From the NCBI GenBank assembly GCA_035480035.1, contig DATIID010000001.1, positions 265,323 through 329,322 on the forward strand: a stretch of DNA of 64,000 nt, read 5' to 3'. The notes under the pieces were generated by a model that worked only from the letters and a program-made list of their open reading frames with translations, was not told where the DNA came from and searched no databases. The position numbers and the translations under genes are program-made. The stretch comes from Candidatus Saccharimonadales bacterium. GTDB taxonomy: Bacteria > Patescibacteriota > Saccharimonadia > Saccharimonadales > OMJO01. Position 1 is the first letter of the stretch. Every line of letters starts with the position of its first letter. Of this stretch, positions 6,025 through 33,098 are shown in pieces.

Positions 6025-6564
6025 CTATTCTTCTTCAGCTGCATCTTTAGTAGTATCGCGGGCTTTAAGCGCCGCTTCAACTTTAGCATCAGCTTTGGCT
6101 TGGGTTTCGGCTTCTTTGGCGGCCTTAGCTTCGGCTTCTTTGGCGACTTGTTCATGCAGTTTTTCTTCTTCAGCTTCAGCATGTTCATCATGAATTTCAT
6201 TAACAGCCGCTACATCAAAACCAATGCCGGTTAAACGTGCAGATTTGCCGGTCAGTTTACGCATGTAGGTCAAATAGTTACGACGAACCTTACTGCGCTT
6301 GGTAACTTCAACCTTCAGAATCAGTGGGCTATGGAGTAAAAAGCTTTTCTCAACTCCGACACCGCTAGCTACCCGTCGAACGGTAATCCGACTCGAGGGG
6401 CTATTCTTTTTATCGGTTCGAATAACTAAACCTTGAAAAATCTGAACCCGCTCTTTGTTGCCTTCACGGATCTTTTGGTGGACTTTAACCACATCGCCAG
6501 AGCGCACATCAACCACTTGGCGTTTCTTATACTTTTCTTCAATTTGTTGAATTACCGAAGGCAT
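6025..6564 (-). CDS. rplS: 50S ribosomal protein L19 with a long Ala/Glu/Lys-rich C-terminal extension
   Basis: L19 core (VVDVRSGDVVKVHQKIREGNKERVQIFQGLVIRTDKK...RRVASGVGVEKSFLLHSPLI...VRRNYLTYMR) followed by about 65 extra low-complexity residues. Confidence 0.93.
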   Translation of the reverse strand: MPSVIQQIEEKYKKRQVVDVRSGDVVKVHQKIREGNKERVQIFQGLVIRTDKKNSPSSRITVRRVASGVGVEKSFLLHSPLILKVEVTKRSKVRRNYLTYMRKLTGKSARLTGIGFDVAAVNEIHDEHAEAEEEKLHEQVAKEAEAKAAKEAETQAKADAKVEAALKARDTTKDAAEEE

Positions 6565-6665
6565 AACCGATAAACTCTACCTGATTTAATTTCTTTCGTC
6601 AATTATACCATATCTGTTGTAAGAATGAAACACTCTGTAGCGGTCAAACCATTTACAATAAAACT

Positions 6666-7799
6666 ATGCAAGATTTTGCTAGTAAGGCCTTAACCGACCA
6701 TCAAAAGTTACGTGGCAAGTTAGCAATTAAGTTAAAAGACAATCTCGATACCCAAGACAAATTGAGTACTTATTACACGCCCGGTGTGGCCGCCGTGTCG
6801 AGTTATGTCGCCGAACATCCGCTCGAAGCCCGAGATTACACATGGATAAATAATAGCGTAGCTGTTGTCAGTGACGGTTCAGCCGTTTTGGGTTTAGGTA
6901 ATATCGGCCCACTTGGTGCCTTACCTGTCATGGAAGGCAAAGCGATGTTATTTAAGCATTTTGCTGACATTGACGCCGTCCCAATTGTGCTTAATGTTCA
7001 TACTGCTAATGAAATCGTAGCTACCGTTAAAGCGATCGCGCCTGGCTTTGGCGGGATTAATCTAGAAGACATTGCTGCGCCACTCTGTTTTGAAGTTGAA
7101 GACCGACTTAAGGCCGAGCTAGATATCCCAGTTATGCACGACGACCAACACGGTACGGCTGTCGTAGTGCTCGCCGGTCTAATAAATGCTGCTAAAGTCA
7201 CAAAGCGTAAATTAAGTAATGCTCGAGTGGTAATTGTTGGCTCCGGGGCCGCCGGTACAGCTGTAACTAAACTACTCTATCAATATGCCCAACCTAAAAT
7301 TATTGCTGTTGATTCGCGGGGCATTATAAATCATGAGCGTAAAGACTTGAACGAAGATAAGACCAGGCTGCTTGATTATTTATATGATGCTAAAACCGGC
7401 TCTCTTGAGGATGCCATGACTGGTGCCGACATTTTTATTGGTGTATCCAGGGCTAATTTAGTCACTGGCGCCATGGTTGAGTCCATGGCTAAAAAGCCGG
7501 TCATTTTTGCGATGGCCAATCCAATACCAGAAATCATGCCAGATGCCGCCAAAATAGCCGGCGCGGCTATAGTCGCGACTGGTCGAAGCGATTTTCCAAA
7601 TCAAGTTAATAATTCCTTGGCGTTTCCGGGCATTTTTCGTGGAGCGCTCGATAACCATATCACTCACATTACCGACGAGCACAAAATTGCCGCCGCTGAA
7701 GCTATTGCTGGACTCGTTAGACAGCCGACAGCCGACAAGATTATTCCAAGTGTGCTCGAAAAGCGCCTGGTCCCGACTGTCGCTAAAGTAATTACTTAA
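6666..7799 (+). CDS. NAD(P)-dependent malic enzyme (short form, no PTA-like domain)
   Basis: 377 aa; motifs [64 protein letters not shown] and VGSGAAGTA. Confidence 0.9.
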
Positions 7800-8062
7800 G
7801 CAATATTTTTATTGCTGGAGTTTAGTAAATCGTTTCTTTCTTTTTCTGTTAGGCCGGCCCATATGCCAAACCCGTCCGATGCCTCAAAGCATTGACGCGC
7901 AACAATACAGCCAGCGCAGATCCGTTTAGCTTTGGCTTCGCGGGCGACCTTGTCGTCATGCAGTTCAGTCCGACCATTTTCCGGACCATAAAATACTTCA
8001 GTTAGTTCTTGATTAAAACACGAACCATCTTTTATCCAGCTCCTGTCAGTTGTCGGTCTCAT
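7796..8062 (-). CDS. WhiB-like (Wbl) Fe-S transcriptional regulator
   Basis: 88 aa with four Cys in Wbl spacing (C15; C49-x2-C52-x5-C58 in RICAGCIVARQC), followed by the GIWAGLTEKER turn motif. Confidence 0.8.
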   Translation of the reverse strand: MRPTTDRSWIKDGSCFNQELTEVFYGPENGRTELHDDKVAREAKAKRICAGCIVARQCFEASDGFGIWAGLTEKERNDLLNSSNKNIA

Positions 8063-8099
8063 AGCGTACCTTAAATATATAACTTCTGCTCAGATTTCA

Positions 8100-9704
8100 C
8101 TAGCCAACCACGCGGAAGACTTCGTCGAGCGTGGTTAAGCCTTGGCAGGCCTTAAGAATTCCATCCTGCATAATGGTACTCATACCACTTTTGATAGCTG
8201 CAGCTTCAATGTCTTGAGTCGACAATATAGTATTAGCTTGCTCGAGCAACTTGCGAATTTCGCCGGTCATTAAAAACTGCTCCCGGACGGCCATTTGACC
8301 ACTAAAACCAAACGGGTTGTCCTCGGACTTACCGGGCACATAGAATTGTGTGCTGTTAAGGTCAGGCCTCTCCATGCCTTCAGGTAAAGTGTCAATTACT
8401 GATTGAACTCTTTTTATAGTGGCTTCCTCGGGTTGATAAGTTTGCTTTGTTTTATCATCCAAGCGCCGGACTAAACGCTGGGCCATAACCAAGCGAATGG
8501 CTGAAACAAATAGCGGGTTAGTGCCAATCACGTCCATCATTCTAGTCAAGGCGGCAGAGGCCGATGAGGCGTGAAAAGTTGACAACACCAAGTGTCCAGT
8601 TAAAGAAGCCTGAAGTGCAGTGCGAGCTGTGTCAGTATCACGGATCTCACCAACCATAATAATATCCGGATCAAGCCGGAGTACGGCTCGAAGTTCTTCG
8701 GCAAAACTAATCTTGGTGGTATTAAGACCAGTTACCGACACTTGAGTGATGCCTGGGAATTGATACTCAACCGGATCTTCAATTGTAATAATTTTGCGGT
8801 TTTCGTTATTTAAGGTGTTGAGCATTGAGTAAAGAGTGGTCGTTTTCCCAGATCCGGTTGGTCCGACAATCAGCACCAGACCACTAGGTTTAGTAATAAT
8901 ATCGTCGACCACAGCGCGTTCCCTTACCGACAAACCAAGTTTATCGAGGTTGTACATAGTTTGGTCGAGATTGAATAAACGCATAACGATATCCATGCCG
9001 TTAATGCTGGGCACGGTTTCTAAACGTAAATTAATATCAACCTCTGAACCATCAAGCATCTTTACTTTGGTTGACATGTGACCCTGTTGAGGTTGTGTTG
9101 CGTAAGTTGATATATTGCCGCCACTGGCAATGGCTGAGATCACAATGTGATATTTAGCTGGTGTTATTTTGGCGATTGGGTGCAAAACCCCGTCAATTCG
9201 AAAACGAATCCGAACATGATCGCGCTGACATTCCATGTGAATATCAGAAGCATTCAAACGGTGAGCTTGTTCAACCAAATAGGCTAAAACGTCGTCAGCC
9301 TTAACTTGCTCTAAGGTTGCAGATACTGTCTTAAGTAAATCCGGACTGTCAGTTTGAGATAATGCAATATCCTGATAAACCACCTCTTTGGGTGGATCAT
9401 ATAGCTTCATGTATTCGCGGTAACCAGTGTCCGAAATTAATGCGAAGCTAACACGCTGATCTTGAAAACGCTGACGTAGCGACATAAGTGTCTGTTGGGA
9501 CGTAGTGTTAGTAATCCCAAAGTTAATGTTATGTTCATCAGCGGTGATTGGTATGATGCGTAAATCGTATAACTCACGCACCGACAGGAGTTGTTTATAC
9601 AGTTGTTTGTTGGGAACTGTTGACGTATCAACATAATCTAGGCCAAGTATTTCGGCCCGTCTTTGAGTCGACCTCTCCTCATCTAAGCGAGCGTTTTGAG
9701 ACAT
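8100..9704 (-). CDS. pilB: type IV pilus / type II secretion ATPase (GspE/PilB family)
   Basis: 534 aa with a T2SSE N-terminal domain, Walker A GPTGSGKTTT, IIMVGEIRD (Walker B/Asp box region) and GHLVLSTFH (His box). Confidence 0.9.
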   Translation of the reverse strand: MSQNARLDEERSTQRRAEILGLDYVDTSTVPNKQLYKQLLSVRELYDLRIIPITADEHNINFGITNTTSQQTLMSLRQRFQDQRVSFALISDTGYREYMKLYDPPKEVVYQDIALSQTDSPDLLKTVSATLEQVKADDVLAYLVEQAHRLNASDIHMECQRDHVRIRFRIDGVLHPIAKITPAKYHIVISAIASGGNISTYATQPQQGHMSTKVKMLDGSEVDINLRLETVPSINGMDIVMRLFNLDQTMYNLDKLGLSVRERAVVDDIITKPSGLVLIVGPTGSGKTTTLYSMLNTLNNENRKIITIEDPVEYQFPGITQVSVTGLNTTKISFAEELRAVLRLDPDIIMVGEIRDTDTARTALQASLTGHLVLSTFHASSASAALTRMMDVIGTNPLFVSAIRLVMAQRLVRRLDDKTKQTYQPEEATIKRVQSVIDTLPEGMERPDLNSTQFYVPGKSEDNPFGFSGQMAVREQFLMTGEIRKLLEQANTILSTQDIEAAAIKSGMSTIMQDGILKACQGLTTLDEVFRVVG

Positions 9705-20141: not shown

Positions 20142-21110
20142 ATGTCAACCTTAATGGCCGAACCGAGCCTATACCGACACCCTCAACTAGAAATTGAGGG
20201 TGTTTTTGATATAAATCAGAATGAAGAATCGCAGCCACGTCTAGCGCATGGCCAGGTTGACGTTGGTCGAGTGCCAATCAGTTATACAGCCGGATTGCCA
20301 GAACAACGTATTTATGATGGTTGGGCAAGCTTTGAACCAGGTTTCGGCGGACTTAAAAGCACTTCTCGACCATTAAGGAATGCTCTTAGCGAGCTAGGAC
20401 TGATCACTGTTACTTATGGTCCGGCTCGTAACGATAACGATAATCCATGGACCCGTTTAACCCGTTCCCAAGATACACACATCCAGACAATAGAAGCTAT
20501 AGCGAACGACATATCCAAAAACCCGGCAATCAAAAGGACTGCGCCTGATTATAAAACAATTGACTTCGACAGACAGGTACTGATTCCGCATTCGATGGGC
20601 GGTTTAGCTGCTGTACCTTACGCCGAAAAACAAATTAATAACGACAATCATAACACTTCCATTGATGCCATTATTAGTTTAAGTTCGGCCGGTTATGGCT
20701 CGCCTAGTTTTAAGCAAATAGCACATGCCATACCGCTTGGGGTAGGCCGGGCCATTCGCGATGAATTAGTACCTGGACTAAAAAACACAGACATAGCAAT
20801 TAACCCTACTAATCTGGCTAGGATAATCCACTACTATGGCCGAAATCCAGGACGAACGATTGGTGAGGCTTTATCTTGCTTAACTCAAGATGTTCGACCG
20901 GCCGTTAAAAGATTGGGTGAACAAGGTGTTAAGACCGCTTTTATAGCCTTTGAAAATGACATTTTAATTCCACCTAATGAGCAAATTAGTGATGTAGTTG
21001 ACCTTTATCACGTGATGCCTGATTCTGGTCATTCTGCGCCACAATTTGAACCTAAACGTGTTGCCAATATGATTGTTGACAGCTTGCATCAACTTGAATT
21101 AACAACCTAA
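20142..21110 (+). CDS. alpha/beta-hydrolase-fold protein
   Basis: 322 aa with a nucleophile elbow (IPHSMGGLA, the GxSxG class) and a late His (DSGHSAP). Substrate unknown. Confidence 0.6.
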   Translation: MSTLMAEPSLYRHPQLEIEGVFDINQNEESQPRLAHGQVDVGRVPISYTAGLPEQRIYDGWASFEPGFGGLKSTSRPLRNALSELGLITVTYGPARNDNDNPWTRLTRSQDTHIQTIEAIANDISKNPAIKRTAPDYKTIDFDRQVLIPHSMGGLAAVPYAEKQINNDNHNTSIDAIISLSSAGYGSPSFKQIAHAIPLGVGRAIRDELVPGLKNTDIAINPTNLARIIHYYGRNPGRTIGEALSCLTQDVRPAVKRLGEQGVKTAFIAFENDILIPPNEQISDVVDLYHVMPDSGHSAPQFEPKRVANMIVDSLHQLELTT

Positions 21111-21117
21111 TCGCTAC

Positions 21118-23082
21118 TTAAAGTTTAGCCTTAATATCAGAAATTATGTCACGCAGTTCGGCGGCTTGTTCAAATTGTAAATTGGCAGAGGCTAAATCCA
21201 TCTGTGATGTCAAATCTTTGATCAGCTGAGGATACTCATCTTTGGGAATTTTCTTAAGATTTAGTTTGGCGGTTTTAGCTTCCTCGGGTAAATCTGGTCG
21301 CATGCCCTTTTCAACTGCTTTGCTGATGCCTTTGGGTTTAATGCCGTGTTGTTTATTGTAGTCGGATTGAATTTTACGTCGGCGATTTGTTTCATCAATG
21401 GCTCGGCGCATACTGCCAGTAATTACATCAGCATACATTATGACTCGGCCGTTGACATGACGAGCGGCTCGGCCAATAGTTTGAATTAAGGCTTGAGTAC
21501 TCCGTAAAAAACCTTCTTTATCAGCATCTAAAATAGTTACTAGACTAACTTCTGGTAAATCCAAACCTTCTCGAAGTAAATTAATGCCGACCACCACATC
21601 ATAGACGCCCAATCGTAAGTCACGTAAGATGTCAGTTCGATCAAGCGTGTCCACGTCACTGTGCAGATAAGTTACTTTGATGTTTATTTCCTTTAGATAA
21701 TCTGTAAGGTCTTCAGCCATGCGCTTGGTTAATGTGGTTACCAGAACTCGTTGACGTTTTTCAACAGTTGTTCGAATTTCAGCAATCAGATCGTCAATTT
21801 GACCGTCAACTGGACGAACTTCAATTTCTGGATCAATTAGCCCAGTTGGGCGAATCACTTGCTCGGCTGGTTGGAGGCTGCGGCTTAGCTCATACTCCGC
21901 CGGCGTAGCACTGACGTAAACAACCTGGTTAATATGCTTCTCAAACTCGGTAAATGTCAACGGCCGGTTATCCAGAGCACTTGGCAAGCGAAAACCATAC
22001 TCCACCAATGCTTCTTTGCGCGCCCGATCACCGTTATACATACCACGTACTTGCGGAATCGTCATATGCGATTCATCAATCAACATCAGGTAATCATCCG
22101 AAAAATAGTCGAGTAGTGTGGCCGGTTGTTCACCCGGCTCACGATTAGTTAAATAACGGCTGTAGTTTTCAATCCCTTTAACAAAACCGGTTTCGGCCAT
22201 CATTTCTAGATCGAATTTAGTCCGTTCCTGAATCCGCTGGGCTTCAATTAATTTGCCGTGTTTTTTAAAAAAGCGCGTGCGTTCATCAAGTTCGGTTTCA
22301 ATTTGGCCTAAAGCTAGTTTTAGTTTGTCTTCGGGTGTGACGTAGTGGCTGCTTGGAAAAACTTTCAATTTATCAGGTTTGGCTAGAATTTCGCCGGTCA
22401 ATGGGTCAAGCTGAGTGATTCTTTCAATTTCATCGCCAAAAAATTCCACCCGGTAAGCCACTTCCTCACCAGCCGGAAATATATCGACTACGTCACCGCG
22501 CACTCGAAAGACACCACGATGAAAGTCTAAGTCGTTACGTTGGTACTGAATATCGGTTAGTTGCCGGAGTAGCTTATCGCGAACTCGGCGTTCACCTTTT
22601 TTTAGACTGATCGCTAAATTGCCATAGTCTTCGACAGAGCCAATACCGTAGATACAGCTGACACTGGCCACGATAATGACATCGCGCCGGGTTAACAGCG
22701 AGTCTGTTGCGGCGTGGCGCAAACGATCAATTTCTTCATTAATCTGGCTGTCTTTTTCGATGTAAGTATCACTTCTGGCAATGTAGGCTTCGGGCTGATA
22801 GTAATCAAAATAGCTGACGAAGTAATGGACTGCGTTGTTTGGGAAATATTGCTTGAATTCACTGTATAGTTGAGCCGCCAAGGTCTTGTTGTGGCTAAGT
22901 ACTAAGGTTGGACGCTGGGTATTTTGAATTAAATTAGCCATTGTGAAGGTTTTACCCGACCCGGTCACACCAAGCAAAACTTGTTCATGGGCTTTATTAA
23001 CTAGACCGTCCGTCAATTGTTTGATAGCAGTCGGTTGATCGCCCGTCGGTTTATATCCACTCTTAAGCTGGAACTTAGCCAT
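21118..23082 (-). CDS. uvrB: excinuclease ABC subunit B
   Basis: 654 aa; [10 protein letters not shown] Walker A, helicase motifs, and a C-terminal UVR domain (FEQAAELRD). Confidence 0.95.
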
Positions 23083-23867: not shown

Positions 23868-24509
23868 CTATCCACTGTGGCCACTGGTGCCTTTAATAGG
23901 CCGGCCATACTCATCGGTTTTGTCATCGTCTAAGTACCACGAGGCCGCCAAAGCTTTGGTATCGATGTCTTTATTATCGTTATTCAGACGGTTGATAATC
24001 AACCTAACTAGTTCTTCAGGATCATCATTATAAATCAAATTCTTCTGGTTAACGGGTTCTAGTCGCTGCATTAGCTCTTTGATAATATCAGCTGCGCCTT
24101 GGCTGCCAGTCAAAATACCACAAATAGTATTGCTCTCTAGCGCTGTGGTAAATTCATGCAAGCTGCCCATTCGGCCACCAATAGTAATCACAGCATCACT
24201 AGAAAGTACCAAGTGGGTATCTCGACCGACATAATGCATGCCCGTAAAATTAATAAAGTCATAAATCCCAATCGGCAGCCGATATTTGAAAACATGCTCG
24301 CGTAGTGATGACGCCGGCGAAAAGCCAATACTCATGCCACCAGCCGCTTTGGCTGCCCGGGCAGCATAATATGGCAGACCAACCGTGGCACCAGTAGTGA
24401 CAATATGGCCGGCTTTGGCAATTGATTGACCAATTTGTTCGGCTAACTTTTTGTCTAGCTCGACGGTTTTACCGGCCGCCGCACCGGATACACAAATAGC
24501 ATAATTCAT
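23868..24509 (-). CDS. LOG/SLOG-superfamily Rossmann protein (TIGR00725-like)
   Basis: 213 aa; ICVSGAAAG, TTGATVGLPYYAARAA and ITIGGRMGSLHEF (the GGxGTxxE-type motif), plus a C-terminal extension of about 45 aa. ATGA overlap with the upstream ORF. Confidence 0.6.
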   Translation of the reverse strand: MNYAICVSGAAAGKTVELDKKLAEQIGQSIAKAGHIVTTGATVGLPYYAARAAKAAGGMSIGFSPASSLREHVFKYRLPIGIYDFINFTGMHYVGRDTHLVLSSDAVITIGGRMGSLHEFTTALESNTICGILTGSQGAADIIKELMQRLEPVNQKNLIYNDDPEELVRLIINRLNNDNKDIDTKALAASWYLDDDKTDEYGRPIKGTSGHSG

Positions 24510-25771
24510 CCAAAAATCTCCTGGGCAATCATCGATACTGACCGAGATTCATTGTCCAACTGTTTCAATACTTGGGCTTCCAACGCCGGGTGGCTAAGGT
24601 AACGCATTTGCAACTCATTCCAAAGACTGTGGCGCATATAATGACAGCTTTGCTGACCATAGGGCACATTATTAAGGTAGTTGACGGCATTATCCATCAA
24701 GTTAAAGCTAATTGGTCGGTCTTCAACCATCAAACCAACGTAGTCCATCTCATGCCAATACATCAGTGCTGGTTCTAGACGATACAAAACTTCCTCGGCC
24801 TTGCGCCAAGCTAAATCACTAGCTTCAAGATATGGTTCAAACAAACCGTGATTGGCTGATTTAGATTGGTGAGCTAAATGTCGCTGAACAACCCGCCAAT
24901 GGACGGTATGCCGGCCGACCTTTAGTTTTCCGGTGTCGTCATCGGCAATTAATTTAACTACCATATCACCAAAGTTTGGTTCAATTTGTTTGAGTTTCAA
25001 AAATGCACCATATAATCTAATTTCGTTAATATAATACAAAATTATAGTCATTAGCATCATTGGTAGGCCTTTAAGTTGATCGACTGGTAATGGCAAAATC
25101 AATATTGAGCCTAGTTCTTTGGAGTGAATCAAATTATGGTGTGATTTACGAACATAGTCGCCCGTGATTGCTTGCCATCGTCCACCAGCTGGTTGAATAA
25201 ACTCAATTGGCCTAGCTTCAAAATCAGCCGGTTGGAGTTTTTTATAAGTTTTTATAAATTTACTCAGCCATTCTTCCGATTCTAAAATCCTAATTAGTCC
25301 GAATAACAGACCCATAGATTCGCGTTTCAACATCGAATCAATTGACCGATATTTCAATTTTTTCATAGTTTGCTGCGGTGGATTATTGGTTAATAAACGC
25401 TTAGCCACACTGTGTTTTAACGCCCAGGTTTGTTTGGGGATATTTAACCTTTCAATAACTAGCCGAATTTTAGTTATAACTTCTTCAACTTTGGCTAAAT
25501 CACTGAGACCAATATGTTTACTTAAAAATTGATTATGCAGGCCAACTAAATTCATCAAAGCGTAATAAAGCTCTTCGCTTGATGACTGGGTAGGATCTAA
25601 TTCTAAAGCTATAACGTGCCGATTGATTTTGGTGGCAATTTCAGCAGTTAAGCGAACATCGATACTTTGATTGCCACTGGCCTTTTCCAATTCAGTTACA
25701 TTAATTGAAAACCATGGCTCATTGGCCCCCAAAAGTTCCGACAAAGACTTCGACATAGTTACCATAAGCAT
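24506..25771 (-). CDS. hypothetical protein (421 aa), no motif recognised
   Basis: Long ORF on the same strand, translationally coupled to the LOG-like gene. The start is ambiguous: ATGs at 25771, 25765 and 25756. Confidence 0.6.
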   Translation of the reverse strand: MLMVTMSKSLSELLGANEPWFSINVTELEKASGNQSIDVRLTAEIATKINRHVIALELDPTQSSSEELYYALMNLVGLHNQFLSKHIGLSDLAKVEEVITKIRLVIERLNIPKQTWALKHSVAKRLLTNNPPQQTMKKLKYRSIDSMLKRESMGLLFGLIRILESEEWLSKFIKTYKKLQPADFEARPIEFIQPAGGRWQAITGDYVRKSHHNLIHSKELGSILILPLPVDQLKGLPMMLMTIILYYINEIRLYGAFLKLKQIEPNFGDMVVKLIADDDTGKLKVGRHTVHWRVVQRHLAHQSKSANHGLFEPYLEASDLAWRKAEEVLYRLEPALMYWHEMDYVGLMVEDRPISFNLMDNAVNYLNNVPYGQQSCHYMRHSLWNELQMRYLSHPALEAQVLKQLDNESRSVSMIAQEIFG

Positions 25772-25830: not shown

Positions 25831-26493
25831 ATGCGTCCTAATATGATTGAATATCGGGAGCTTGCTGACGCGGTCACATACGGCAGAGTGTTAGCAAATG
25901 GCGGGGTTATAGGCAGTTTGATAACGGCGCCACCTAATGATGAGTATTCTTGGGGCCGAGCCTGGAGTTATGGTGCGGCATGTACTGGCGATGTTGTCGA
26001 TGGTTGGCTCGCCCGTCGTGATTCGCGCGGCACTAATGACCATGGCGCGATGCTCGATCAAACTATGGACAAAGTGGCTTCATATGCCACAGAGGGAACT
26101 ATTGCCATTAAACACCGTGATCCTGTGGCTGGCGTTTCAGTAGCCGTTGATCTTATGCGCGATAGGATAGTTAATGGTAAACGCCGAGAAATAATCGCCG
26201 TTAATAAACTTTTGGACGAACAAGGTAAACCAGAAATTGCCCTGAAGGCTCGCAAATTAGGTAAAATAAAAACTTTGGCAAAATCAGTTACAAACGGTTT
26301 CGCTATGTCGCCGCTTGGTGAAAAATATCCGAATACTATCCGCCTAATGCGAGTTGGTTGCATGGCTTTAACGGTTGCCAGTGGTGTTGATTTCGTCAAA
26401 AAAGCCGATCAGGCTTTAGTCGAGTTTTATGCAGATCAAAACGGTTCGGGTTTATACCAAGAGGGTGCCTTTTCCAATAACTCGCTAAGCTGA
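25831..26493 (+). CDS. CDP-alcohol phosphatidyltransferase-family homolog with unusually polar helices
   Basis: 220 aa; D54-x2-DG-x2-AR-x9-G-x3-D-x3-D80 (GDVVDGWLARRDSRGTNDHGAMLDQTMD). Further PgsA-like landmarks are MRDRIV and GKIKT. The expected TM segments contain many charged or polar residues. Confidence 0.6.
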   Translation: MRPNMIEYRELADAVTYGRVLANGGVIGSLITAPPNDEYSWGRAWSYGAACTGDVVDGWLARRDSRGTNDHGAMLDQTMDKVASYATEGTIAIKHRDPVAGVSVAVDLMRDRIVNGKRREIIAVNKLLDEQGKPEIALKARKLGKIKTLAKSVTNGFAMSPLGEKYPNTIRLMRVGCMALTVASGVDFVKKADQALVEFYADQNGSGLYQEGAFSNNSLS

Positions 26494-27449
26494 TTTTCGG
26501 TTAGCAAGCCATCTTGAGCGCCGACCTTCTGAACAACGTTCATAGAGTTAATGGGTGCCCACTGTAGTGCCCCTTCGATATTACTGCCTTTAACCAAAGC
26601 CGCCACAAAAGTGCTGGCAAAAGCATCGCCAGCGCCAGTCCGTTCAAAAGGTGGCGCCGGATCAGGATAAGGTGGCATTTTATAGCGGTTTTGGCTATCA
26701 CTGGCATAAGCCCCGTCAGGACCGTCAGTTATTACCGCAATTTTTGTCCCTAGCTCATGCATTCGGTTGAGCAGATCATGGACATCTTGGTGATCACCGC
26801 CCGTCACATTAGCGGCTTCTTCACGGTTTAATATCAGGACTTCGGTTTGTTTATATAGCCGATGGAGCTTTTGGACACCAGCTTGCATCTGAAAAGTGCC
26901 GGGCTGAAAGGCCAACTTAACTTCTGGGTTGTCTTCTAGCCAATCAGCGATATGATCATGGTATTTTTCAAGAGAATTTTTACTGATTGAACTGAAGTAA
27001 ACCCATTTCGGAATATCAATCGAGCGAAACCTTGGCCAATGGTAATCATATTCTTCGTGCTTTATCAAAATTGTTCGCTCTTCTTTGTACCACAAAACAT
27101 AGTGGTAATTACTGACCTTGCCGGGATTAATGTGGATGAAACGTGAGTCGACGTCATTCTTTTCTAACGCGTTGATAATGTCACGCCCGAATTGGTCACC
27201 GCCAACATTTGACACTAAACCACTATTCAGGCCTAACCTCGCAAAGCTAACTGAGGCATTGGCAGCGTTGCCGACACCTTCAATGATTTGAGCATGGTCA
27301 TATGGTACTTTAGTGGCAAATGGTACAGACAGCCAATCACCATCTTCATTGTGATAAACATGAGCATTGTCATCGAGCAGTTTAATAAAAGCATCGGTTA
27401 CCACATCACCAATACTCAGGACATCAATTTGTGAATTATGACTCATCAC
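26436..27449 (-). CDS. PfkB-family carbohydrate kinase (possibly a phosphofructokinase-type enzyme, given the aldolase neighbour)
   Basis: 337 aa; N-terminal LSIGDVVTD and the C-terminal GAGDAFASTFVAAL anion-hole motif. Confidence 0.8.
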   Translation of the reverse strand: MMSHNSQIDVLSIGDVVTDAFIKLLDDNAHVYHNEDGDWLSVPFATKVPYDHAQIIEGVGNAANASVSFARLGLNSGLVSNVGGDQFGRDIINALEKNDVDSRFIHINPGKVSNYHYVLWYKEERTILIKHEEYDYHWPRFRSIDIPKWVYFSSISKNSLEKYHDHIADWLEDNPEVKLAFQPGTFQMQAGVQKLHRLYKQTEVLILNREEAANVTGGDHQDVHDLLNRMHELGTKIAVITDGPDGAYASDSQNRYKMPPYPDPAPPFERTGAGDAFASTFVAALVKGSNIEGALQWAPINSMNVVQKVGAQDGLLTENQLSELLEKAPSWYKPEPF

Positions 27450-27510: not shown

Positions 27511-28476
27511 TTAATTGAAAGCTTCCTGGTCAACCGGTTTGTCAGTTGGCACTGGTTTCGAGCTAGGTGTTACGGCTTTGCCGGCTGAATTGAACATATC
27601 AATTTTACTCTCCACGACTTTTTGAACAGCAGTAATAACCTTGTCCATTAATTTGACGACAGCATACTCGTCTGGATTATCTTTCAAAACTTGTTCGAGA
27701 GTCGTACGATAAGCTTTGCGAAGGTCGGTGTTGATATTTATTTTGGAGACGCCAATTTTAACGGCATCTTCAAAATAGTGTCCGGGCGTACCACTGCCAC
27801 CATGCAAGCTGATATTACAATCAATCGATGCCCGAATTTGTTTAAGTAACTCTAAATCAAGTATTTTTGGGACTGGGTACGCGCCGTGCAAATTACCAAT
27901 TGCGGCGGCATACGTATCAATCCCGGTTGCTTCGACAAATTCCTGAGCACCATCGGGTGTACTAAAAGTTTTTTTAATTTCGTTATAATCAAAAGCTTTG
28001 GTAAAAACATTAGAGCCACCACCGAAGTAATGGGGTTCACTTTCAACCATGGCGCCAGTTTTTTTAGCGGCATCCACAATTTGTCTAGTTTTTTCGATAA
28101 TTTGGTGCTCGGTGGCATCATGGTCAGCTTGGGAGATATCGATGTGGATGAGCTCATAGCCGGCTTCGATGCCAGCAATCGCCGCTTCGACAGATGGTGA
28201 ATGGTCGAGATTAATGTAAATTTCCACACCGACATCACGCTTGTAGTTATCAACCATATCACGGATATTGTCTAGCCCCATAGCCTCAACCTCACCCTGA
28301 CTGACTTCAACTAGCACTGGAGCTTGCTTATCGCGGGCCGCCCGTACAACGGCTACTAAAGTTTCTTGGTTGTCCAGATTAAAAGCGCCCAATGCAAAAT
28401 GTTCAGTCCGCGCCCGCGCCATCAGCGCTCGCGCTCGGTCGCAATTATACCTAATTTGACTTAGTGATATCGACAA
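27511..28476 (-). CDS. fba: class II fructose/tagatose-bisphosphate aldolase
   Basis: 321 aa; motifs FALGAFNLDN, NLDHS, ISLHGGSGTP and KININTD. Confidence 0.88.
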   Translation of the reverse strand: MSISLSQIRYNCDRARALMARARTEHFALGAFNLDNQETLVAVVRAARDKQAPVLVEVSQGEVEAMGLDNIRDMVDNYKRDVGVEIYINLDHSPSVEAAIAGIEAGYELIHIDISQADHDATEHQIIEKTRQIVDAAKKTGAMVESEPHYFGGGSNVFTKAFDYNEIKKTFSTPDGAQEFVEATGIDTYAAAIGNLHGAYPVPKILDLELLKQIRASIDCNISLHGGSGTPGHYFEDAVKIGVSKININTDLRKAYRTTLEQVLKDNPDEYAVVKLMDKVITAVQKVVESKIDMFNSAGKAVTPSSKPVPTDKPVDQEAFN

Positions 28477-28531: not shown

Positions 28532-29149
28532 ATGCTAAATCGAAACAAATTGCTGGCCATTGTAAGTTGGCTATTACCATCTGGTAGTGGCGTGATTATT
28601 TACTTTTTAACCAGCGTTTTAACGCTGTCACTTAGTAATGCTAATTATTTCCGTAGTTTTTTTGACTTACCACAAAATTTTCATTTTAAAAATGCCTTGC
28701 TCGATTCTATTAACAATTTAGTCCAACGCTTTGTTGGTGATCATATCGCCCGCTCGGCGATTGTGGCCTTATTTTGGGCACTGGTTGGCTTATTGGTCTA
28801 CATGGTCATCTGGGTTATGATCAACTACTCTGACGAGATCGGTAATGATCTGGCGGTGACAAAATATATGCACCCCCGTAACAGCGATACTCGTTCACCG
28901 CTACGTGGTTTAATTGTTAGGATTGCTTTTCAAGTAATAGCTTTAATTATCTTGATAATTTACTTAAATATGGTGATAAACGTTATTATTCCTCGAATTG
29001 GTAATCTTTATCGTCAATCAATTCACCAGTGGCCGAGTTTACAATCTGTCGGACATGGTAGCTTGGGACTACTCTGTGAATTTGTAGCCTTGCATTTAAT
29101 TATTCTGCTGGCGCGCTTATTAACACTTCGAAAAAGAATATTTGGCTAA
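28532..29149 (+). CDS. hypothetical polytopic membrane protein
   Basis: 205 aa with about 4 hydrophobic helices. A TATAAT box (28516-28521) lies 10 nt before the ATG. Confidence 0.55.
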   Translation: MLNRNKLLAIVSWLLPSGSGVIIYFLTSVLTLSLSNANYFRSFFDLPQNFHFKNALLDSINNLVQRFVGDHIARSAIVALFWALVGLLVYMVIWVMINYSDEIGNDLAVTKYMHPRNSDTRSPLRGLIVRIAFQVIALIILIIYLNMVINVIIPRIGNLYRQSIHQWPSLQSVGHGSLGLLCEFVALHLIILLARLLTLRKRIFG

Positions 29150-30129
29150 TTTTTCGAACTGTCGAGCATATCTTCAACAGTAGAAACAATGTGTTTAGCA
29201 TTAAGTCCAAAGTGATCAAGTAGTTCTTCTGGCTTACCCGATTCACCAAAATGATCTTTCATGCCCATACGAATTAATGGTGTAGGCTGATGTTCACTAA
29301 GCAGTTCGGCAACTGCTCCACCCAAACCGCCAGCCATTTGACCTTCTTCAATCGTGATAGCTTTACCAGTTTTTTGAACACTTTTTAATATTGTCACGCC
29401 ATCAAGCGGTTTAATGGTTGGACAATGGATAACTTCAGCTTCAATGCCTTTTTTAAATAGCATCTCAGCTGCTAGCAGCGCTTGATAAGTCATTGTGCCA
29501 GTGGCAATCAAACTTATTTCACTACCAGGTGAGTAGACGTAGGCTTGGCCAATTTCAAACGGTGTTTTATCAGTTGTAATAACTGGTGTGGCTTCTCGGG
29601 CCAAGCGCATGTAGTTTGGTTTATTATTAGTCGCCATGGCTAAGGTCGCGCGCTCGGCTTCCAAGCTATCACCAGGAGCAATTACCACCATATTTGGCAA
29701 AACCCGCATCAAGGCAATGTCCTCAAGCATTTGGTGAGTGGCGCCATCCGGACCAACCGACACTCCGGCATGTGAACCAATAATCTTAACCGGTCGATCG
29801 TTAAGGCAAATGGTGGTTCTGATTTGTTCCCAGTTGCGGCCAGGGCTAAAAGCGGCGTAACTTGATACAAACGGAATCTTACCGACCGCAGCCAGTCCTG
29901 AGCCAACCGTGACTAAGTTTTGTTCAGCTACTCCAATTTCAATAAAACGATCCGGAAAAGCTTCTTTAAACAAATGCATTTGGGTTGATTCAGTCAAATC
30001 AGCGCAGGCCGCCACGACATTGTCGTTAATCTGGCCGGCTTTCAATAAGCCTCGGCCAAAACCTTTGCGAATTGGCTCACTGACTAAATCTTTAGCTGTT
30101 ACATCATCAACTAAATAATACTCACTCAT
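29146..30129 (-). CDS. transketolase, C-terminal (pyrimidine-binding) subunit
   Basis: 327 aa; EIGVAEQNLV and typical Pyr/C-terminal transketolase domains. Overlaps the N-terminal subunit gene by 8 nt. Confidence 0.9.
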   Translation of the reverse strand: MSEYYLVDDVTAKDLVSEPIRKGFGRGLLKAGQINDNVVAACADLTESTQMHLFKEAFPDRFIEIGVAEQNLVTVGSGLAAVGKIPFVSSYAAFSPGRNWEQIRTTICLNDRPVKIIGSHAGVSVGPDGATHQMLEDIALMRVLPNMVVIAPGDSLEAERATLAMATNNKPNYMRLAREATPVITTDKTPFEIGQAYVYSPGSEISLIATGTMTYQALLAAEMLFKKGIEAEVIHCPTIKPLDGVTILKSVQKTGKAITIEEGQMAGGLGGAVAELLSEHQPTPLIRMGMKDHFGESGKPEELLDHFGLNAKHIVSTVEDMLDSSKN

Positions 30130-30979
30130 GTTCGCTCCGGATCTTACCTTCCAGCGTTCTCAGCTCATGGAGGGCTTTTTTAGCCTCTTCGTGATTGGGT
30201 GGCGCGCCGTGCCAATGAAAATCATACTCCATAAAATCAACGCCTTTACCGGGCACTGTGTGCGCTAAAATCATAATTGGTTTTTCAACTACCGCCCGGC
30301 CCATCGCACAAGCATCAATAACCGCTTCAACGTTGTTGCCGTCAATTTCTATAACATGCCAGCCAAAACTTTCCCATTTGCTCTTCAAATCTTCCAGCGG
30401 CATGACAACCTCAGTCGGGCCATCAATTTGAATATTATTACGATCGGTAATGGCAATAATATTGTTAAGCTTGTATTTACTGGCTAGCATGGCCGCTTCC
30501 CAAACATTGCCTTCGTCTTGCTCGCCGTCACTCATAATTACATAAACCCAACGATGCATATCTTTGTTCATGCGCATAGCCAGAGCCACACCGCAAGCTT
30601 GACTTAAACCGGATCCAAGTGGACCACTTGTAGTTTCTAAACCAGGTAAGCGCAATCTTTCGGGGTGTCCTTGCAAACGCGAGCCAAACTGTCGAAGAGT
30701 CATTAGCTCTTTGCGATCAAAGTAACCGGCGTTCGCCATGGTGGCATATCTCACCGGTACGCAGTGTCCATTGCTAAGGAGCAGGATATCGCGCTGATCC
30801 CAATCTGGTTTCTTGGGATCGTGTTTGAGAATTTCAAAATATAAGGCCGTAAATATGTCAGCTAGTCCCAGTGGCCCCGCACTATGACCACTACCTGCAT
30901 GTTCAAGCATTTTGATAATATCTTCACGGATAGTTGTAGCAACGATTTCGAGTTCTTGAATAGTCAATTGTTTTTTCAT
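30122..30979 (-). CDS. transketolase, N-terminal (TPP-binding) subunit
   Basis: 285 aa; motifs GSGHSAGPLG, LSNGH and IMSDGEQDEGNVWEA. Confidence 0.9.
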   Translation of the reverse strand: MKKQLTIQELEIVATTIREDIIKMLEHAGSGHSAGPLGLADIFTALYFEILKHDPKKPDWDQRDILLLSNGHCVPVRYATMANAGYFDRKELMTLRQFGSRLQGHPERLRLPGLETTSGPLGSGLSQACGVALAMRMNKDMHRWVYVIMSDGEQDEGNVWEAAMLASKYKLNNIIAITDRNNIQIDGPTEVVMPLEDLKSKWESFGWHVIEIDGNNVEAVIDACAMGRAVVEKPIMILAHTVPGKGVDFMEYDFHWHGAPPNHEEAKKALHELRTLEGKIRSEHE

Positions 30980-31614
30980 TTGTATCTTGTAACTAACTCT
31001 TCTAGTTTAGCATAAGCCGAGGTCGGATCATCGGCTTTTTGAATAAAACCGCCGACATTTAAAACATCAACACCGCCGCTTAGCAAAGCATTAACGTTGT
31101 GTTCGTTAATCCCGCCGTCCCAGCCAATTTCAAGTTCGGGTTTGAGGTGTTTAAGCTCGGTTATTTTCCGCAACAGACTTAGATCAGCCTTGCCGCCAAA
31201 CCGGCCTAAGTCACCAGAAAAAATTAAAACATGGTCAATTAAATCTAACCCCGATTGAATAGTCGAGACTGGTGTGTTGGCTAGTAGAGCAACACCGACT
31301 TTTATGCCCGCTGCATGTAATTGATCGGCAAAATTCTGAAAATCACCATGTGTCTCGGCATGAACTATGGCCAAATGTGGTTGATGTTGCAAAATTACAT
31401 TAAGTGTTTGGTCGGGTCGGCGAAACATGAGATGTACGTCAGCTGTTACACCAGCTGGCCACCAAATTTGATCGAGTCCAGGCGATTTAGTTGGCGTTAA
31501 CTGACCATCCATAAAATCCAAATGGATACGCTTGGTAAAATGGGCAATTCGTTCAATCTGTTGACGATATTCATCTGTTGTCGTAGCGGTTACGGTTGGA
31601 CAAATAACGGCCAT
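30976..31614 (-). CDS. rpe: ribulose-phosphate 3-epimerase-family TIM-barrel protein
   Basis: 212 aa; the IHLDFMDGQLTP metal/substrate motif and its position in the pentose-phosphate block. More divergent than canonical Rpe. Confidence 0.7.
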   Translation of the reverse strand: MAVICPTVTATTTDEYRQQIERIAHFTKRIHLDFMDGQLTPTKSPGLDQIWWPAGVTADVHLMFRRPDQTLNVILQHQPHLAIVHAETHGDFQNFADQLHAAGIKVGVALLANTPVSTIQSGLDLIDHVLIFSGDLGRFGGKADLSLLRKITELKHLKPELEIGWDGGINEHNVNALLSGGVDVLNVGGFIQKADDPTSAYAKLEELVTRYK

Positions 31615-32057
31615 TACAGCTCATCCAATTCCTTTAAACGGCGAACAAAGCGTGGCGCCGCTTCAAATTTAGTGTTAAGCCAAACGTCAACAATTTGTTT
31701 AAGCTGGTTGTTTTCCAGGTCATCGGCCGGCAAGCACAAAATATTACTGTCGTCATCATTCCGTGATAATTTGGCAGCTTCACGATTGTAACCGAGGACT
31801 GCTCGAATGCCTTTGTGGCGATTGGCGGCCATACACATACCCTGGCCACTACCACACAACAAAATACCGCGAGCGTCCTTATCGTCGCTAGCTAACACAT
31901 CAGTTACTACTTGTTTGGCAAACACTGGGAAATCATCATCTGGATCAAGTCTTTGATCACCGTCGTCCAGAACTGGGTAACCACTATCTTTCAGAAATTT
32001 AACCAACGGCTGTTTGAGCTGATAACCACGATGGTCAGTACCAACGTAAATTTTCAT
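31614..32057 (-). CDS. rpiB: ribose-5-phosphate isomerase B
   Basis: 147 aa; GTDHRGYQLK and LLCGSGQGMCMAANRHKGIRA. Confidence 0.9.
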   Translation of the reverse strand: MKIYVGTDHRGYQLKQPLVKFLKDSGYPVLDDGDQRLDPDDDFPVFAKQVVTDVLASDDKDARGILLCGSGQGMCMAANRHKGIRAVLGYNREAAKLSRNDDDSNILCLPADDLENNQLKQIVDVWLNTKFEAAPRFVRRLKELDEL

Positions 32058-32060
32058 AAT

Positions 32061-33098
32061 TTAATCGGCCTTGGGTTTGGTCGGTGGGTTATGAATTAGC
32101 CGGCCAGCATCAGCGACCAGTTCAACCAAACGGTTACTGTAACCCCATTCATTGTCATACCACACCACCACTTTAGCCAGTGTCCCATCAACGACGTTAG
32201 TAAGTAGCAGATCAATAATACCGGAATGGCTGTTGCCAACATAGTCTTTACTGACCAAGGGTTCGTCGGATATATCAAGAATACCCTGGAAATATGGCTC
32301 TTTAACGGCTTTTTTAAATACCTCGTTAATTTCATCAACTGTGGCCTTATGTTCCAATACCATAGTTATATCACTCAGACTAACTACTGGGCTGGGTACA
32401 CGCACACTCATGCCGTCAAACTTGCCCTTTAGTTGTGGCAAAGCTAATGTCACGGCAATGGCTGCACCGGTAGTCGTTGGCACGATGTTTTCAGCCGCCG
32501 CTCGGGTTTCACGCATATCCTTGGCTGGACCATCCTGCAAGGCCTGGCTAGCCGTATAGCTGTGCACAGTTGTCAGCATAGCTCGGGTAACGCCCAAGGC
32601 TTCATCCATGATGGCCATAACTGCGGCGACTGAGTTGGTTGTGCAACTAGCGTTACTAATAATATCGCCGGCTTTAGCGAGTGCATCTTCATTGGCGCCA
32701 ATTACCAGCGTTTCAATGTCAGCACTCTTGGTCGGCGCCGAAATCACCACTTTTTTAGCGCCAGCCTTCAGGTGTTGAGCGGCATCTTCGCTTTTGGTAA
32801 AACGTCCGGTCGATTCAATAACGACATCGACACCTAATTTACCCCAAGGCAGTTTAGTTGGATCTTTTTCAGCAGTAACAGGGATTCTAAGTCCTTCAAC
32901 AATAAGGTTGCTGTCGTCAAAACCAACCTGTCGATTGTAGGCACCATAGTTACTGTCGTGTTTTAACAAATAAGCCAGGGTTTTGGTGTCAGTTAAGTCG
33001 TTGATGGCGACAATATCTAAATCAGCCCGGTCAAAGGCAATCTTAAAAGCATTTCGACCAATTCGGCCAAAACCATTGATAGCAATGTTGGTTTTCAT
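32061..33098 (-). CDS. gap: type I glyceraldehyde-3-phosphate dehydrogenase
   Basis: 345 aa; INGFGRIGRN, the ASCTTNS active site, and WYDNEWGYS. Confidence 0.95.
   Translation of the reverse strand: MKTNIAINGFGRIGRNAFKIAFDRADLDIVAINDLTDTKTLAYLLKHDSNYGAYNRQVGFDDSNLIVEGLRIPVTAEKDPTKLPWGKLGVDVVIESTGRFTKSEDAAQHLKAGAKKVVISAPTKSADIETLVIGANEDALAKAGDIISNASCTTNSVAAVMAIMDEALGVTRAMLTTVHSYTASQALQDGPAKDMRETRAAAENIVPTTTGAAIAVTLALPQLKGKFDGMSVRVPSPVVSLSDITMVLEHKATVDEINEVFKKAVKEPYFQGILDISDEPLVSKDYVGNSHSGIIDLLLTNVVDGTLAKVVVWYDNEWGYSNRLVELVADAGRLIHNPPTKPKAD

Follow-up and report, generated by a model that had tools for sequence, protein, structure and literature searches.

Two described relatives frame the locus reported here: E. 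coli PpnN shows that additional domains can govern a LOG core, and in Thoeris ThsA and kindred systems SLOG domains have a sensor role. In this work, we describe orf421, an open reading frame (ORF) of 421 codons, and the adjoining gene for a LOG-type protein of SLOG cluster 4 (LD4). Both lie in a 64,000-nucleotide stretch of a Candidatus Saccharimonadales genome (assembly GCA_035480035.1, contig DATIID010000001.1, positions 265,323 to 329,322), referred to below as the window. The two genes form a vertically inherited, co-translated two-gene cassette that is specific to Saccharibacteria and sits at the tail of a non-oxidative pentose-phosphate/lower-glycolysis operon, a context that points to nucleotide-ribose metabolism over defense. 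A first-pass annotation of the window, made from the sequence and its ORFs, had joined the two genes with a third, carrying a prepilin signal, into one operon and had suggested an undescribed nucleotide-dependent module.

The biology of the host is relevant to any such proposal. Saccharibacteria lack de novo nucleotide and phosphoribosyl pyrophosphate (PRPP) synthesis, a canonical 6-phosphofructokinase, and usually transaldolase, and they must import nucleotides (Starr et al. 2018, PMC6031116). In the cultivated relative Southlakia epibionticum ML1, SEML1_0553 to SEML1_0540 encode GAPDH, RpiB, Rpe, Tkt, Tkt, fructose/ketose-bisphosphate aldolase (FBA), PfkB, a “LOG family protein,” five small hypothetical proteins, and UvrB (Wang et al. 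2023, Tables S1 and S2, PMC10633639). The “LOG family protein” belongs to PF18306 and is flagged as a core family (PMC10633639). A second LD4 paralog of this organism, SEML1_0423, adjoins the phosphoribosyltransferase-like gene SEML1_0424 (PMC10633639, Table S2), a neighborhood that gives a hint that the LD4 family acts in nucleotide or ribose-phosphate metabolism. In the literature on TIGR00725, LDcluster4, and LOG in Saccharibacteria or Patescibacteria, we found no description of the orf421–LD4 pair.

Pairing of orf421 with LOG-superfamily genes

We gathered 96 related loci (identified by L numbers) and took a census of the first 88, of which 86 were informative and two ended too early. A LOG-superfamily gene lay beside orf421 in 83 of the 86. 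In 78 loci this was an LD4 gene, downstream of and co-directional with orf421, and in five a canonical LOG (PF03641, E about 1e-33) stood in its place. The first-pass annotation had held that orf421 homologs lacking a LOG-like neighbor would speak against a linked pair; only three such loci were seen, with no LOG-type gene within 5 kb. When the search was run outward from LD4 homologs, all six loci recovered (L091 to L096) had orf421 upstream with a 4-nt overlap. The pairing of orf421 with a LOG gene is real and far above chance.

The two genes are also tightly coupled. In the window, the orf421 stop and the SLOG gene start overlap by 4 nt (ATGA, TTTGGATGAATTAT), and an 18-nt spacer with GGGGG ahead of the next ATG separates the SLOG gene from the pilin-like gene; these features and the coordinates of the three minus-strand ORFs are as originally annotated. 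Among the 78 LD4 loci, the overlap is 4 nt in 26 and the spacing lies between -8 and 0 in 53, and insertions between the two genes occur in only three (gaps of 688, 719, and 2571 nt). At L074, the 2.6-kb insertion between orf421 and LD4 (6323-8788) carries the gene for a sugar-specific regulator of the TrmB family (PF01978, E=1.4e-6).

Where a canonical LOG takes the place of LD4, its arrangement varies: it is divergent and upstream at L043 and L069, convergent and downstream at L085 and L088, and downstream, fused or abutting, at L083. All five of these proteins, each of which was checked, keep the PGGxGTxxE and RK motifs. Two more convergent canonical LOGs were found outside the census, at L089 and L090, and these loci form with L085 and L088 a deep clade having the convergent arrangement. 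In a neighbor-joining tree of orf421, L069, L043, and L083 branch among clades that carry LD4, which indicates independent replacements that kept the adjacency. Loci without a LOG gene are likewise nested in the tree, and their state is consequently best read as secondary loss.

The SLOG cluster-4 partner

The LOG/SLOG assignment of the orf421 neighbor stood up to profile searches. The LD4 protein is a clear member of PF18306 (SLOG cluster 4), with 103.5 bits against a cutoff of 26.3 (E=1e-29, residues 3-168, full model). It falls below the cutoffs of TIGR00725 (65.8 vs 106.9 bits), PF03641 (17.8 vs 27 bits), and TIGR00730 (38.6 vs 96.35 bits). The label “TIGR00725-like” that it first received is thus a fair one, while membership in TIGR00725 is not. 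The AlphaFold 2 (AF2) model of the protein, with a predicted local distance difference test (pLDDT) score of 89, has a Rossmann-like SLOG fold. Foldseek ranked TM1055 (1rcu) first, followed by the molybdenum cofactor (Moco) carrier proteins 6y01 and 2iz5-7 and then by type I/II LOGs, including complexes with AMP. A sequence search of the PDB ranked the same structures.

The motif quoted for LD4 in the first-pass annotation, ITIGGRMGSLHEF, is present at residue 108, on the conserved positions G111, G112, R113, G115, and E119. Across 34-36 orthologs, with a mean column identity of about 70%, R96 (in GRD) and E119 (in GGRxGSLHE) are invariant, and in the alignment they take the positions held in LOG by the catalytic Arg and Glu. 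R77, R113, and H72 are further invariant basic residues. From these invariant positions, a phosphorylated, nucleotide-like ligand can safely be inferred, whereas catalysis cannot. LD4 would work most like the LOG enzymes without being a member of them. The C-terminal tail of about 25-45 residues is variable and modeled with low confidence. The LD4 partners fall into two classes, one of about 187 residues, exemplified by L001, at about 50% identity to the window protein, and one of 200-213 residues at 65-87% identity; the second class bears a WYLDD...GRP tail.

The orf421 family

Homologs of orf421 are numerous. A word-index search returned 693, and an exhaustive profile search returned 916 clusters at 50% identity, of which 496 scored below 1e-30; in both cases the proteins were about 400-430 aa long and carried no names. 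A pattern scan placed the family in 392 species-level genomes. The named sources are all Saccharibacteria, Saccharimonadales, or “Patescibacteria,” bar a few exceptions that carry Saccharibacteria-type flanks and are probably mis-binned. The originally annotated start at 25771 does open an ORF, but the homologs and the NCBI gene call (416 aa) begin at the third ATG (M6, position 25756), which is the probable true start and gives a protein of 416 aa.

The first-pass annotation could recognize no motif in this protein, and remote-homology and structure checks led to the same result. The orf421 protein had no match in Pfam, NCBIfam, or PADLOC, and sequence-profile searches of the PDB with close (A1) and diverse (A2) alignments found nothing. 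In a census of weak Pfam matches among 40 relatives, nothing recurred beyond scattered noise (INTS5_N in seven members and isolated helix-turn-helix models). The AF2 model is confident (pLDDT 86, predicted template modeling score 0.85) and has a helical bundle at the N-terminus, with mixed alpha/beta-hairpin elements after it. Foldseek found no neighbor for this model in the PDB or BFVD (best E 0.5-1.1, template modeling (TM) score about 0.1), and the fold is apparently new. Assignment to a well-known housekeeping family had been named as an outcome that would undo the original proposal; orf421 fits no known family by sequence profile or by structure and represents a family not previously described.

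Mean column identity among close relatives of orf421 is 67%. The two motifs highlighted at the outset, GRHTVHWRVVQRHLAH at residue 286 and WHEMDYVG at residue 339, fall on columns that are invariant in these relatives (H291/W292/R293 and W339, within HWR and FWHxMDYVG). In a diverse alignment, only E29, W292, W339, D360, Y391, K119, S143, and a few acidic residues are still conserved. The most conserved motif, LGYRSIDSMLKRE, lies within a short helix-turn-helix-like stretch, as judged from the alignment and the AF2 model, and family members have a median pI of about 7.9. The protein had been called His- and Trp-rich; both residues are present, but at 3.8% and 1.9% their enrichment is only mild. 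One homolog, P0243 (582 aa), has an additional N-terminal partial self-copy of about 165 aa, in which N-terminal bundle motifs are joined to a C-terminal-like hairpin; the segment looks like an internal duplication or a fused paralog fragment.

Genomic context

In the window and in essentially all loci, the cluster runs GAPDH, RpiB, Rpe, TktN, TktC, FBA (class II), PfkB, orf421, and the LOG-type gene, followed by uvrB and gatCAB (Table 1). The same GAPDH-to-transketolase order is found at L083, L088, and L001 and in S. epibionticum. PfkB is co-directional with orf421 and less than 150 nt upstream of it in 57 of 88 loci, and FBA is kept in the same block in nearly all. At L084, a divergent locus, only 2-3 nt separate orf421 from PfkB on one side and from FBA on the other. 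Downstream, uvrB is present in nearly all loci (72-88% identical) and is presumably unrelated in function to the pair; its constant place illustrates how well gene order holds in this lineage. The orf421–LD4 pair is the tail of a vertically inherited, single-copy sugar-phosphate operon and not a mobile or conflict module. A promoter and terminator scan gave sigma-70-like promoter and terminator signals no higher than the shuffled expectation, and an Rfam scan of window positions 19-35 kb for a riboswitch that could name the ligand gave no match.

Table 1. Annotated features of the window around the orf421–LD4 pair.
Feature	Coordinates	Strand	Basis or remark
orf421	25771..24506	(-)	ORF list; Saccharibacteria-specific, fold without known match
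SLOG cluster-4 (LD4) protein, 213 aa	24509..23868	(-)	LOG/Moco carrier protein (MCP) superfamily
Pilin-like, N-terminally anchored protein, 246 aa	23849..23109	(-)	ORF list, N-terminus
PfkB-family sugar or nucleoside kinase	26436..27449	(-)	PF00294 E=1e-37; usual gene directly upstream of orf421
Class II fructose/ketose-bisphosphate aldolase (FBA)	27511..28476	(-)	TIGR01859/TIGR00167 family matches
Transketolase C half	30129..29146	(-)	NCBIfam match
Transketolase N half	30979..30122	(-)	NCBIfam match
Rpe	31614..30976	(-)	NCBIfam match
RpiB	32057..31614	(-)	NCBIfam match
GAPDH	33098..32061	(-)	NCBIfam match
uvrB, conserved downstream flank	23082..21118	(-)	Translation
CDP-alcohol phosphatidyltransferase-family gene	25831..26493	(+)	PF01066 E=1.5e-8
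205-aa ORF, apparently multi-pass membrane	28532..29149	(+)	No Pfam match
Alpha/beta-hydrolase-like ORF	20142..21110	(+)	Weak Abhydrolase_6 and Hydrolase_4 matches

The pilin-like gene, which the first-pass annotation had counted as the third member of the operon, does not belong to the conserved unit. Its N-terminus (...ESGIGTIETILILIIVSMIG; ESG/IGTIETILILIIVSMIG) fits by eye the prepilin pattern of a short leader, Gly, Glu at +5, and a hydrophobic helix, and it has a weak prepilin-type match (NF007800, E=3.8e-4, 20.3 bits vs a cutoff of 158). The positional equivalent at L094 has a weak N_methyl match (19.8 vs 21.2). Relatives of the protein were detectable in only about 8 of 82 loci. The gap between LD4 and uvrB is less than 160 nt in 49 of 75 loci and more than 280 nt in the other 26, and in about 15-20 of the 75 the slot holds a gene for a 190-255-aa protein whose hydrophobic N-terminal segment is often pilin-like. 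The pilin-like gene is an unrelated, variable, and facultative insertion between LD4 and uvrB. At L041, three tandem pilin-like genes (6881-8799) lie between LD4 and uvrB.

Several other variable positions were noted in and around the operon. For the PfkB-family kinase of the window, no NCBIfam model reaches its cutoff, and the best partial matches are to ribokinase, IolC, and ribose-1-phosphate kinase. The PfkB slot upstream of orf421 holds, depending on lineage, one of two very different kinases, about 70% and about 30% identical to that of the window; loci such as L006, L009, L027, L039, L041, and L046, among others, differ in this respect from most, which suggests that the kinase underwent paralog displacement too. 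Between PfkB and orf421, the window carries the CDP-alcohol phosphatidyltransferase-family gene on the opposite strand, where it overlaps the PfkB 3′ end by 58 nt. By tblastn, the same divergent insertion is present in 7 of 88 related loci (L008, L011, L016, L029, L030, L070, and L076; confirmed with Pfam for L029 and L030), and it breaks an otherwise unbroken operon in a subset of lineages. At L094 to L096, a 217-aa opposite-strand gene with no Pfam match sits at this position. The 205-aa membrane ORF of the window lies between the transketolase C half and FBA and has at its end a 4-nt overlap with the transketolase stop. The alpha/beta-hydrolase-like ORF lies between uvrB and gatC, and a similar gene is found at the equivalent position in L091 and L092.

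Proposed role and alternative explanations

The reading that we prefer, and hold tentatively at somewhat short of even chances, is that the LOG-type protein binds a nucleoside 5′-phosphate, probably cleaves it, and so feeds or gauges ribose 5-phosphate for the adjacent enzymes, with orf421 as its co-translated partner. It builds on what was observed of the family distribution, the operon setting, the stop/start coupling, the exchange of LD4 for canonical LOGs at this position, and the retained equivalents of the LOG Arg and Glu. The ligand would be nucleoside-5′-phosphate-like, and cleavage, which is probable, would yield the base and ribose 5-phosphate. That ribose 5-phosphate would supply, or serve to gauge, the flow of scavenged nucleotide ribose into RpiB/Rpe/Tkt/PfkB/FBA in organisms that are unable to make their own nucleotides. 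With less assurance, orf421 might act as an accessory or regulatory subunit of the LOG-type protein or as an extra enzyme of the same route. In a stronger form of this proposal, which we regard as rather unlikely, orf421, as an enzyme of new fold or as an obligatory subunit, would complete a route, specific to Saccharibacteria, by which scavenged nucleosides or nucleotides reach central carbon metabolism. It would then act together with the LOG-type N-ribohydrolase, the PfkB-family kinase, and the class II aldolase, in hosts without PRPP synthesis, a canonical phosphofructokinase, or transaldolase.

A number of observations weigh against the preferred reading. The nearest solved relatives of LD4 are TM1055, whose function is unknown, and the Moco carrier proteins, which carry ligands and do not hydrolyze them, and LD4 lacks the exact PGGxGTxxE and GGGxxGxM motifs, having IGGRMGSLHE and TGATVGLP instead. 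The proposed pathway requires no extra enzyme, which leaves the role of orf421 without explanation. In S. epibionticum, PfkB is followed directly by LD4 with no gene of about 1.25 kb between them, so that orf421 is absent at the locus. By transposon sequencing in that organism, LD4 is non-essential, while Rpe, RpiB, FBA, and PfkB show growth defects (PMC10633639). Three loci hold orf421 yet no LOG gene within 5 kb. Adjacency by itself is weak evidence because synteny across the class extends to the entire block, with uvrB and gatCAB, which are unrelated, among its genes. A mirror-tree test gave no sign of special co-evolution between orf421 and LD4 (partial r 0.25 vs 0.15-0.28 for control pairs). 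More generally, the roles given here to LD4 and orf421 rest on sequence, predicted structure, and gene context. An orf421::LOG fusion is possible, as a single apparent case, P0247 (658 aa), is encoded at L083, one sequence on one contig. However, an A6 homopolymer lies exactly at its junction (L083 7239-7244), and both other frames hit a stop within 14 codons. The source is a single-contig, 808-kb metagenome-assembled genome, a 1-nt indel would restore two separate genes, and no relatives of P0247 came up in a metagenome scan. As a singleton with an A6 junction that may be a frameshift artifact, P0247 was set aside as Rosetta-stone support.

Some of these observations would fit a simple absence of any functional link, with orf421 a lineage-specific gene frozen in a syntenic block between PfkB and the LOG-type gene and acting independently. 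The equal synteny of the functionally unrelated uvrB and gatCAB, the retention of LD4 without orf421 in S. epibionticum and of orf421 without a LOG gene in three loci, and the lack of excess co-evolution signal are all as this explanation would have it. The stop and start of orf421 and LD4 overlap in two thirds of the loci, however, and the LOG-type gene stays beside orf421 in independent clades where its subfamily and orientation have changed. Insertions pile up between LD4 and uvrB (26 of 75 loci with a gap of more than 280 nt), while between orf421 and LD4 they are found in only 3 of 78. We therefore consider mere co-residence improbable, and the linked module of the first-pass annotation holds to the extent that the pair is more than simple adjacency. 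It is not an obligate module: the S. epibionticum arrangement of PfkB and LD4 without orf421 implies that LD4 is part of the sugar-phosphate cluster whether orf421 is there or not and that the pairing is facultative. On this evidence, orf421 is an optional addition, widespread in environmental lineages and dispensable in some.

The pair could also combine a sensor with a regulator, with LD4 as a receptor that binds a nucleotide or sugar phosphate without catalysis and orf421 as an output module that tunes expression or activity of the operon. Operons often end in their own regulators, LD4 is structurally nearest to ligand-carrier proteins, and a few orf421 relatives have sub-threshold matches to TFA2_Winged_2, HTH_36, and GntR; the family median pI and the location of LGYRSIDSMLKRE in a helix-turn-helix-like stretch would also suit such a role. 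However, these matches are scattered, with 1-2 of 40 members concerned and E no lower than 0.007, the orf421 of the window has none, and Foldseek gave no DNA-binding domain for it. Constraint at 67% mean column identity over 420 aa would be unusual for a transcription factor, and in several lineages LD4 is replaced by canonical LOGs that are catalytically intact by motif. Consequently, we doubt that the pair is a sensor and its regulator. Two further possibilities are far less plausible. As a nucleotide-dependent conflict or defense module, the SLOG protein would sense a nucleotide signal and orf421 would be a novel effector; SLOG sensor domains do occur in Thoeris ThsA-type systems, and orf421 has no known function. 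PADLOC returned nothing significant, with PsyrA on LD4 as the sole match (13.6 bits over 50 residues). Across the class, the pair is kept in single copy, is inherited vertically, and stays at one spot at the 3′ end of a housekeeping pentose-phosphate/glycolysis operon, with no mobile-element neighbors seen in the loci. LD4 is flagged as a “core family” and is non-essential (Wang et al., PMC10633639), and housekeeping-type LOGs can replace it. On the PADLOC results and the genomic context, the defense-system reading was dropped, and with it the conflict or signaling framing of the first-pass annotation. Equally remote is a role as cofactor carrier, in which LD4 would store or transfer a pterin phosphate or similar cofactor and orf421 would be the acceptor or insertase. 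The likeness to 6y01 and 2iz5-7 speaks for this role (Foldseek TM 0.85-0.89; sequence E=2.6e-8 to 6y01), but no molybdenum-cofactor genes (moa/moe) lie in the conserved neighborhood, and canonical LOGs again substitute for LD4. It also counts against a carrier that Saccharibacteria are not known to use Moco enzymes.

Saccharibacteria and other bacteria of the candidate phyla radiation rely on nucleotides that they scavenge, and there are unexplained gaps in their central carbon metabolism. The orf421–LD4 pair is a testable candidate for a step that joins nucleotide salvage or breakdown to sugar-phosphate metabolism. If the link is true, it would give the uncharacterized SLOG cluster-4/TIGR00725-like family its first functional context. 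If the two genes prove functionally unrelated, orf421 still defines a lineage-specific family with clear limits, made up of about 900 clusters at 50% identity, for which Pfam has no entry.

Comparison with known systems

With the SIR2-SLOG protein ThsA of Thoeris, LD4 shares only the nucleotide-binding domain superfamily. The orf421–LD4 pair differs from Thoeris-type systems in having no defense-model match, no known effector domain, and no mobility or patchiness, and in its housekeeping operon. A much closer structural relative is TM1055 (1rcu), on which LD4 superposes with E=1.5e-11, a target-normalized TM score of 0.85, and a root-mean-square deviation of 2.4 Å. As the TM1055/PF18306 family has no known function, membership in it explains little, and LD4 differs from TM1055/TIGR00725-like proteins by its sub-cutoff TIGR00725 score and its variable, low-confidence C-terminal tail. 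The Moco carrier proteins (Chlamydomonas MCP, 2iz5-7; Rippkaea MCP, 6y01) have the same Rossmann-like fold (target-normalized TM 0.83-0.89) and share with LD4 the motifs G-x-G-x-G-[ST]-x-x-E and [AG]-R-[DN]. However, MCPs are Moco-binding carriers in phototrophs, while LD4 is found in a sugar-phosphate operon with no evident Moco context and is replaceable by true LOGs.

The LOG phosphoribohydrolases (PF03641, TIGR00730; type I and II LOGs such as 5zbk, 5wq3, 7w2i; E. coli PpnN) were compared as well. For orf421, no likeness to solved structures was found, the accessory domains of PpnN included. LD4 fails the PF03641 and TIGR00730 cutoffs and has IGGRMGSLHE in place of PGGxGTxxE and TGATVGLP in place of TGGGxGxM. 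Nevertheless, it shares superfamily and fold with these enzymes (E about 1e-8 to 1e-9), its fold matches AMP-bound LOG structures, the equivalents of the LOG Arg and Glu are kept, and canonical type-II-like LOGs fill the same orf421-adjacent slot elsewhere.

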